Shown here: positions 11,495 to 12,950 of the stretch, piece by piece | Layout of the letters: each line of letters opens with the position of its first letter | Position numbering within the stretch: position 1 is the first letter of the stretch | DNA from: Armatimonadia bacterium | Lineage (GTDB): Bacteria; Armatimonadota; Zipacnadia; Zipacnadales; UBA11051 | Reading direction: 5' to 3' | NCBI GenBank assembly: GCA_039683575.1 | Contig: JBDKRC010000253.1 | Coordinates: 1 to 20,742, forward strand | DNA: 20,742 nucleotides | Position numbers and translations under genes: made by a program | Notes under the pieces: model-generated | Databases searched by the model: none | What the model was told of the DNA's origin: nothing | What the model saw: only the letters and a program-made list of their open reading frames with translations

Positions 11495-11693
11495 CTGCTC
11501 ATGCCTACCCTGAGTGTTCGCTGATCTCCGCAATAGTCTGACTGCTACGATGCCGCCCTCCCCAGCGCCGAAGGCGCGACAGCCACCCGTGTTGCGTCCC
11601 CGAAAAGCCTGCACCCTTTGAGCCGGTGGGTGTCGCGACGTGGGGCACGGTTCGCAAAACACACACCTCAATGCGTAGCAACTGTATTCGCAG

Positions 11694-12641
11694 TCAAGCA
11701 GTTTGTGGCAGTCTTGGCTGCCAGGTTTGGCGCTCTTTGATCATGGTGTTTAGGATTACCAACAGCTTGCGCATGCAGGCTACCATTGCCACTTTGGGCT
11801 TCTTGCCCAGCTGCTTGAGGCGCTGGTAGTATGCCCGGATGATTGGATTGTGACGGATCGCCGACACGATGGCCATGTACAGGGCGCTGCGCACGCTGGC
11901 TCGTCCGCCCCAGATGATGCGTTGGCCCTGGAACTTGCCACTGTCGCGGTTCAGTGGGGCCAACCCGGCTAACGCCGCGATCTGTTTGTTGTTGACCTGG
12001 CCCAACTCCGGCAACTCGGCCAACAGCGTGCGAGAAGTGACGTCGCCGACGCCGGGGACACTGCGCAAAAGCTGGTCTTTCTCGCGCCACAGATCGCTGT
12101 GTCGGATCTGATCGTCGAGGTCATCGTCCAGCTGTTTGAGTTCGCTTTTCAGCCACTGAACATGCTTGGCAATCTGCTTGGCGAGCGCTTTGGGAGCCTG
12201 CTGCAAGCGGTTCTTTTCCATCGTCAGCATTTCCAGCAACTGGCGTCGACGGGCCATCAGCGCCTGCAGGAGCCGAGTTTGCTCGTCAGGCAAAGCACGC
12301 ACGGCCGGCCGGTTGCGTTCGGCGAAATCCGCAATGGCCTCGGCATCGAGCTTGTCCGTTTTGGCCAACCGGCCTCGCGAACGAGCATGATCCCGCACCT
12401 GGCGCGGGTTGGCCACGACCACATCGAAGCCCGCGGTCGCCAGGGCTGCCGTGGCTGTCATCTGGTATCCGCCGGTGGCTTCCATTACGATCAAAGTGCC
12501 GGCTGGCTCGCCCAGCCAGGTGGCCAGTGCATCGAATCCAGCGTCATCGTTGGGGACACGGCAACGGCGCTTTTGGGGTAAAACAGCAACATCAAGGTGC
12601 GCTTTGCTGACATCGATACCGACGAACTGCTGATGGGACAT
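11694..12641 (-). CDS. IS110-family DEDD transposase/bridge recombinase (315 aa)
   Basis: RuvC-like DEDD residues in VGIDVSK, MEATGGY and AKTDKLDA, a coiled-coil linker, and a Tnp domain with SVPGVG, AGLAP...DSG (catalytic Ser position), R..GGR..VR.ALY and [11 protein letters not shown]. Reading frame intact. Confidence 0.97.
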
Positions 12642-12647
12642 GGGCTG

Positions 12648-12875
12648 ATTCCTTTGGCTCTACCTTGCGAAATGCGAGTTATCACGACCTCAAGCAACTG
12701 TACGAGTTGCAAAGGACTTCTCGGTCCGCGAGCGGCGACCAAGCTACGCGACGGCATCGGTTACCGGGGTCGGTTACGATCTACCGCTCGCCTCACGCCA
12801 CGCCCGTCGGAGTGCCGTGAGCGACCCGAAGGTCGGTCCGAGAAACATGTCACCATAGTATCAAAGAACGCTGCT
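12648..12875 (-). ncRNA. Predicted bridge RNA (target-binding and donor-binding loops); ends approximate
   Basis: Read on the - strand, AACCGACC (12768-12775) and GCGTAG (12744-12749) sit in an internal loop closed by GCGAGCGG/CCGCTCGC and match the target AACCGAC-CT-ACGC. TACAGTTGCTTG (12691-12702) and CAAG (12664-12667) sit in a loop closed by TCCTTTG..CTC/GAG.CAAAGGA and match the donor junction ACAGTTG-CT-TG. Confidence 0.85.
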
Positions 12876-12880
12876 TAAGC

Positions 12881-12886
12881 AATATA
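12881..12886 (-). promoter_or_regulatory. -10 box (TATATT) of the circle-junction promoter; -35 TTGACT is at 11692-11697
   Basis: The joined ends read TTGACT-gcgaatacagttgCTtg (17 nt)-TATATT. Confidence 0.85.
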
Positions 12887-12890
12887 CAAG

Positions 12891-12950
12891 GTCGGTTCAT
12901 CCCTGAACCGACGCGGGGTGGGAGTGGGTTCGAGACGAACCCACCTACGC
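12891..12950. repeat. Inverted REP doublet interrupted by the IS110 element
   Basis: (GTAG)GTCGGTTCA-TCCC-TGAACCGAC and, on the - strand, GTAG-GTGGGTTCG-TCT-CGAACCCAC. Both have perfect 9-bp stems. Confidence 0.88.

Follow-up and report, generated by a model that had tools for sequence, protein, structure and literature searches.

The natural site of IS621, a member of the IS110 family of insertion sequences (IS), lies at the foot of a repetitive extragenic palindromic (REP) sequence of Escherichia coli. The equivalent foot of a different REP is occupied by the element described here, an IS110-family insertion of 1212 bp (one AG/CT core counted) at positions 11679-12890, minus strand, of a 20,742-nucleotide stretch from an Armatimonadia bacterium (assembly GCA_039683575.1, contig JBDKRC010000253.1), referred to below as the window. 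This element is very probably an intact bridge recombinase IS that entered one REP of an inverted doublet by RNA-guided, site-specific recombination. The evidence consists of the observed anatomy and boundaries of the element, the complementarity of its guides to target and donor, the covariation of structure and guides in its relatives, and the abundance of matching REPs in the genome.

The targeting of REPs by IS621 (PMC11208160, which cites Choi 2003) and by other IS110 members, namely ISPa11, ISPpu9, ISPpu10 and ISRm19 (PMC1525189), is already in print, and an earlier note on this DNA, which had placed an IS110 element precisely at the GTAG foot of a REP hairpin, is supported overall. ISPpu9 and ISPpu10 of Pseudomonas putida are described as having every copy at a single fixed position inside a REP, together with a 2-bp repeat (PMC1525189). 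For ISPpu10, a 2026 preprint reports that the 3' arm of the target stem-loop, 5' of a CT core, serves as left target, and that this stem-loop adds specificity (10.64898/2026.03.19.712850). The target geometry in the window is identical to that of ISPpu10 and ISPpu9, a likeness drawn from published description and not from sequence, whereas the host and the REP family are different. Since both REP targeting by IS110 members and the hairpin geometry of ISPpu10 have been published, the arrangement is of a known kind.

Recombinase and boundaries of the element

The recombinase gene is a 948-nt open reading frame (ORF) at 11694-12641 on the minus strand and encodes 315 amino acids. The protein matches PF01548 (105 bits) and PF02371 (82 bits), both above their cut-offs, and the NCBIfam model NF033542, 'IS110 family RNA-guided transposase', with 251 bits against a cut-off of 140. 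The best solved-structure match is the ISCro4 transposase (PDB 9t56, E 1.4e-47), and IS621 (PDB 8wt6) follows with E 3e-44, both over residues 5-302. Pfam, NCBIfam and the IS621 alignment thus agree on the IS110 assignment made previously from the letters of the DNA. The candidate catalytic residues D10, E54, D96, D99 and S234-G235 align with the IS621 motifs GID, EAT, TDxxDA and SG (D11, E60, D102, D105 and S241-G242), in which the roles of the DEDD and serine residues have been described (PMC11208158). The ORF is uninterrupted with all of these residues kept and, judged from its sequence, the recombinase is apparently intact. IS621 is nevertheless a distant protein, with about one third of residues identical (hand count of the alignment), and differs further in its REP family and host lineage, in a left end (LE) of 191 nt with a transcript of about 177 nt, compared to an LE of 249 nt with extra 5' hairpins here, and in a right target guide (RTG) of 4 bases compared to 7.

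The element splits the REP, leaving the GTAG foot on one side and the 9-bp hairpin on the other. The foot, TGCGTAG, forms the left flank (11672-11678, plus strand) and was read directly in the region 11400-13200; on the transposase strand it supplies the CT core and the right target (RT) ACGCA, the REP consensus being CGCGTAG. The hairpin forms the right flank (12891-12912, plus strand) and reads GTCGGTTCA-TCCC-TGAACCGAC, its 3' arm being the left target on the transposase strand, where the complete target reads TGAACCGAC-CT-ACGCATTG. The core dinucleotide is AG on the plus strand (CT on the transposase strand) at 11677-11678, at the junction with the right end (RE), and is present again at 12889-12890, at the LE junction, so that each junction carries a single 2-nt core and no longer target duplication. 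The inverted partner REP at 12924-12950 (plus strand), GTGGGTTCG-AGA-CGAACCCAC-CTACGC, completes the doublet. All that had been stated in the earlier note about the letters of both flanks and the AG junctions was confirmed by direct reading. On the minus strand, the REP hairpin and the T-rich start of the LE (12912-12881) score as intrinsic-terminator-like directly upstream of the element, a site which, speculatively, could shield the element from read-through transcription.

Both ends of the element are non-coding. The RE (11679-11693, minus strand; 15 nt), which is also the left donor (LD), ends in ...ATACAGTTG followed by the core, and ACAGTTG-CT is kept in relatives; the LE (12642-12890, minus strand; 249 nt) lies upstream of the gene. 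If joined, the two ends would read ...ATACAGTTG-CT-TGTATATT....

The boundaries are set by three kinds of evidence. Flank searches within the genome (6.23 Mb, 352 contigs) identified four uninterrupted paralogues of the whole REP-doublet unit, on contigs C109, C347, C3 and C294, consisting of about 33 nt of left flank, a REP, a spacer, the inverted REP and a right flank of up to 104 nt; all four thus carry the inverted doublet. They share about 33 nt on the left and 58-104 nt on the right with the window and are continuous across the proposed junction, reading ...GCGCGTAG|GTCGGTTCATCCC... at the insertion point. With the hairpin included, the paralogues read ...CAATGCGCGTAG|GTCGGTTCATCC(C)TGAACCGAC... 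and therefore contain GCGTAGGTCGGTTCA, the empty site that had been predicted. This prediction is thus borne out by paralogous units, whereas an orthologous empty allele was not found. A joint of 11675 to 12889 with CGT between, present in public-run contigs, rebuilds AATGCGCGTAGGTCGG and was rejected as such an allele: its shorter side is only 23 letters long and matches the paralogues.

The second kind of evidence is that the termini CT-TGTAT...ACAGTTG-CT are conserved in relatives with unrelated flanks from two public collections. The third comes from the assembled contigs of four public runs. In two of these (X1 and X2) a variant with 98.7% identity was assembled as a contig of its own, 1221 and 1222 nt long, covering exactly 11673-12892 and so overrunning the element by 6 nt on the left and 2 nt on the right; these extra nucleotides belong to the REP and should be shared by every REP insertion site. 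The word depth of this contig is 37.8 (X1) and 32.5 (X2) compared to about 6 for the neighbouring-gene contig, depth being distinct from copy number, and all 15 differences of the variant fall outside 12658-12791, leaving the guide loops identical. In run X3, a contig carries 11673-12500 preceded by 653 nt absent from the window, which represent either another insertion site or a flank that has diverged by more than 10%. Between them, the paralogous empty sites, the termini of relatives and the run contigs ending at 11673 and 12892 uphold the earlier delimitation of the element to the base, save for the ambiguity inherent in a 2-nt core.

The left flank of the window departs from those of the paralogues, reading AATGCGTAG at 11670-11678 compared to AATGCGCGTAG in C109, C347 and C3 and TCGCGTAG in C294. 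The base before GCGTAG is T in the window and C in all four paralogues and in the family consensus. Relative to the first three, the flank looks as if one GC were missing, while C294 shares only the CGCGTAG foot. This departure, which lowers the RTG match from 7/7 to 6/7, may reflect pre-existing variation or a later loss.

The genes on either side of the doublet, 10697-11494 and 13007-13501, lie on the same (minus) strand as the recombinase and comprise a GNAT acetyltransferase and a Pfam Antibiotic_NAT match (aminoglycoside 3-N-acetyltransferase family, 177 bits).

Left end structure and predicted guides

In IS621, the left guides pair with the bottom strand and hence have top-strand sense, the right-hand pair is antisense, and the core is included in all four; the left target guide (LTG) has 9 bases and the RTG 4, although the RTG is longer in some orthologues (PMC11208160). 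These guide strand rules apply equally to the window element, for which a counterpart of the IS621 junction promoter (PMC11208160) is predicted. Here the LE is predicted to encode a bridge-RNA-like transcript, in which two stem-loops with internal loops would carry the guides. The target-binding stem-loop (12728-12791, minus strand) is closed by the outer stem GCGAGCGGU/GCCGCUCGC. It contains the LTG AACCGACCC (12767-12775, minus strand), in the same sense as AACCGAC-CT, that is, left target plus core, with 8/9 matches, and the RTG CGCGUAG (12744-12750, minus strand), antisense to CT-ACGCG, with 6/7 matches to the flank and 7/7 to the REP consensus. The donor-binding stem-loop of the LE structure model (12658-12706, minus strand) contains the left donor guide (LDG) ACAGUUGCU (12693-12701, minus strand), matching the RE end and core at 9/9, and the right donor guide (RDG) CAAG (12664-12667, minus strand), antisense to CT-TG, the core and the first two LE bases, at 4/4. 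A further resemblance, ACCGACCU within the RNA's 5' hairpin, was considered as a second guide and dropped; it is read as coincidence because this hairpin is almost unchanged in relatives that have other targets.

The structure comprises 26 pairs, hand-drawn on an alignment of 16 sequences (A1). Pairing is maintained at 89.6%, with 15 pairs changed on both sides, values reached by none of 500 shuffles, and slid controls pair at 34-43%.

Guides were compared with flanks across 16 elements: the window, L003 from the same genus and 14 of 43 loci from genome contigs. Sister or repeat copies (L030, L032, L039-L042, L054), loci with an unrecognisable end or flank (L033, L036, L037, L043, L048) and, as more distant, all loci from L052 upward were dropped, and the right flank of L029 was borrowed from its sister L030. 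The five non-core bases of the RTG match the element's own right flank at 5/5 in 12 elements, 4/5 in three and 2/5 in one, a mean of 4.62/5 compared to 1.81/5 over 240 mismatched pairings. The donor guides follow the ends in the same manner, with RDG CAAG accompanying an LE that starts CT-TG (12/12), CUAG accompanying CT-AG (4/4), and LDG ACGG found where the RE/LD is ACGG (2/2). The LTG signal is weaker, with a mean of 6.0/9 on own flanks and 4.23 on others; a score of 8, as in the window, is reached by 0.5% of wrong pairings. The sliding-window matching used for the LTG underestimates some relatives, as extraction started after the anchor.

The ends also carry the two halves of a predicted circle-junction promoter, a -35-like TTGACT in the RE (11692-11697, minus strand), overlapping the stop codon, and a -10-like TATATT in the LE (12881-12886, minus strand). 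By reading (hand count), they would stand 17 nt apart once joined through the core. Both halves are kept in the clade, GCTTGAC being present in 9/9 right ends.

REP landing sites and the targets of relatives

A whole-genome scan for GTAG with a perfect hairpin after it found 820 matches belonging to several families. The family of the window is represented in the assembly by 145 perfect-stem copies and has the consensus CGCGTAG-G[TC][GC]GGT[TG]C[GA], loop and complementary arm, with the loops TCT (79), TCC (40), TCCT (11) and TCCC (11). The rebuilt site fits this family, including its rarer stem GTCGGTTCA, found in four other copies, and its TCCC loop; because GCGTAG and the hairpin together fit a family of 145 copies, the rebuilt site is more than chance. 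In the genome-wide scan several other families, with the stems GGCGGGG (193), GCGGGCG (104) and GGCATGC (60), are more abundant than the one used here, and it is a GGCGGGG-type hairpin that is targeted by the closest metagenomic relatives of the element.

The 14-mer specified by the guides, AACCGACCTACGCG, occurs 34 times in the genome, 32 times with an intact hairpin arm visible, and 110 sites lie within one mismatch compared to a mean of 3.8 for shuffled 14-mers. The proposal that the genome's abundant REPs serve the element as landing sites is supported and gains a mechanism: the target loop spells the REP arm and foot, 34 perfect 14-mers are present and guides covary with flanks in relatives.

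Three ORFs exceed the NF047646 cut-off for the REP-associated tyrosine transposase (RAYT) family, at C102:9064-9342 (118.8 bits), C31:890-1150 (85.6) and C338:4861-5124 (83.0), and one more falls below it. No GTAG plus hairpin was found within 900 nt of any of the seven Y1_Tnp matches, and a relaxed scan of four loci gave a single weak, imperfect match.

A metagenome scan provided a close set of nine relatives with 68-84% protein identity; the counts leave out the window element itself. Their visible ends are constant, GCTTGAC-N7-ATACAGTTG-CT in 9/9 and CT-TGTATATT in 7/7, and the foot of the target is nearly so: the RTG ends in GUAG in 8/9 relatives in which it is visible, and the right flank begins with AC in 8/9 with a visible flank, mostly in other REP-like families. 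The hairpin arm that forms the left target differs, being ...CCCCGCC in L081, L082 and L086 and CCGCGCC in L080, and the LTG tracks the changed arm (7/9 in L081, 6/9 in L082, 9/9 in L086 and 8/9 in L080). In total, these nine relatives span at least three repeat families.

In a wider survey by motif filters, 69 of 125 loci passed, representing 67 distinct sites; L003 and L085 were lost because of their pattern, and L079, L083 and L084 because they have no left flank. An AC right flank is present at six of the 67 sites, all six with a hairpin of at least 5 bp ending no more than 1 nt from the core. A hairpin of this length at the core is found at only one of the other 61 sites, so that 60 of the 67 lack one. 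The hairpin-CT-AC geometry recurs in two additional relatives, with about 50% identity.

The same-genus element L003 has inserted into another repeat, CCTACCCC-CT-GCCCCC..., with an RTG match of 7/7 and intact copies of the repeat just upstream. These copies (approximately 1102-1450, G002:C154) are arranged in tandem as units of a composite palindromic repeat, each about 100 bp long and reading CCTACCCCC...GGGGGTAGG with an inner hairpin CCCTCCCTG-N-AGGGAGGGG, and the IS110 copy lies in the last unit. A second, diverged IS110-type element, L002 (G000:C71, approximately 1017-1699), has the same LE architecture, with CT-TGTATGATGG, the target-loop RTG UGGAGAG and the donor loop ACAGTTAC; it ends at the contig end after the N-terminus of the recombinase, and no GTAG REP forms its left flank. 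In L028 from Anaerolineales, the first ~116 nt of the LE are duplicated in tandem (approximately 880-1200), and the donor-guide sequence of the first copy stands before the second, as though donor-loop DNA had recombined with the end junction.

Weighing the proposed mechanism

In the proposed mechanism, crossover would take place at the CT core, corresponding on the other strand to the AG of the REP GTAG foot. The target-binding loop would read the 3' arm of the REP hairpin, with LTG AACCGAC(CC) pairing to the bottom strand, and the donor-binding loop would read the joined ends of the element itself, ACAGTTG-CT-TG. If IS621 is taken as the model, excision would yield a circle, in which the joined ends may form a TTGACT-17-TATATT promoter that would drive transcription of the bridge RNA and the recombinase. 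The recombinase-RNA complex would then recombine the circle with another REP carrying the 14-mer, and the element is probably capable of activity at present.

Several observations weigh against this interpretation. The occupied site is itself a one-mismatch site, with RT ACGCA in place of the guide-specified ACGCG, while the 34 perfect sites are empty. Position 9 of the LTG is C where the core has T, and the match of LTG to left flank is only 3-6/9 in 8 of 14 relatives. Within the target loop the inner hairpin is weak, with 63.9% pairing in the alignment, and a search of all Rfam families at E up to 1 across 11400-13200 gave no match. The earlier note had looked to further copies with the same flanks; no second copy is present within this assembly, the sole other match being the diverged, truncated IS110 on C71, and a single copy gives no replicate of the flanks within the genome. 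Among same-genus genomes there was no usable orthologous empty site, as the flanking genes have matches of only 66-73%, located on different contigs, and no circle junction or back-joint across the element ends is listed among the contigs of the four public runs.

A different account of the site would be that it was chosen mainly by DNA structure, with the recombinase recognising the REP hairpin and the resemblance of the RNA loop being secondary or coincidental. The left target is indeed the 3' arm of a perfect 9-bp hairpin ending at the core, the stem-loop of ISPpu10 adds specificity, and every site in the survey with a right flank starting in AC has an adjacent hairpin. The covariation of guides with flanks, however, persists in relatives whose targets have no hairpin, as is the case for most surveyed sites, and the RNA of the window holds both halves of the site at loop positions that are set by relatives. 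The ISPpu10 preprint, moreover, presents structure as an added layer and not as a replacement (10.64898/2026.03.19.712850). Choice by structure in place of RNA guidance is therefore very unlikely. The window copy might also be a fixed, immobile remnant, stranded by the loss of GC from the right-target flank or by the C at LTG position 9. It is the single copy in the assembly, its flank is short of one GC relative to three of four paralogues, and a promoter scan of the integrated region on both strands found no sigma-70-like site. That last result is expected for the IS110 family in the integrated state (PMC11208160). The ORF retains all catalytic residues and the 98.7% variant with identical guide loops occupies a separate contig of greater depth, which is not copy number. 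The C at position 9 is read as a clade trait and not as damage, as it is common to seven of nine clade members and the differences of the variant avoid the guide loops. We regard a stranded remnant as extremely unlikely.

The remaining alternative places the REP halves within the mobile unit, or has them arrive later, through a doublet that moved beside the IS or through REP-like IS ends, which would put the true boundaries elsewhere than at 11679 and 12890. REP doublets are considered mobile, and the repeat contigs of the public runs do pass the proposed ends by 6 and 2 nt. These are the REP bases expected at every REP insertion site, however, while the paralogues run continuously across the junction and the termini shared by relatives in very different flanks stop precisely at CT, which makes shifted boundaries barely credible. 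Integration of an intact bridge recombinase IS into a pre-existing REP doublet thus remains the preferred reading. The arrangement is well known and ordinary, and the current understanding of IS110 elements and of REPs is unchanged by it.

With rather less than even confidence, the relatives suggest a lineage that is a specialised parasite of the RAYT/REP system across distant phyla, in which the crossover is held at the REP GTAG foot (CT and AC) while the left guide is rewritten for the REP hairpin family of each host. If so, insertion, by separating foot from hairpin, may disable the REP as a RAYT substrate. The locus adds a cleanly delimited bridge recombinase with its natural set of target, donor and guides. 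Its close relatives provide a natural series in which target loops are rewritten between repeat families at a constant crossover point, a series useful for the rules of guide recognition, including a 7-base right guide, a C at left-guide position 9 and a hairpin beside the left target.

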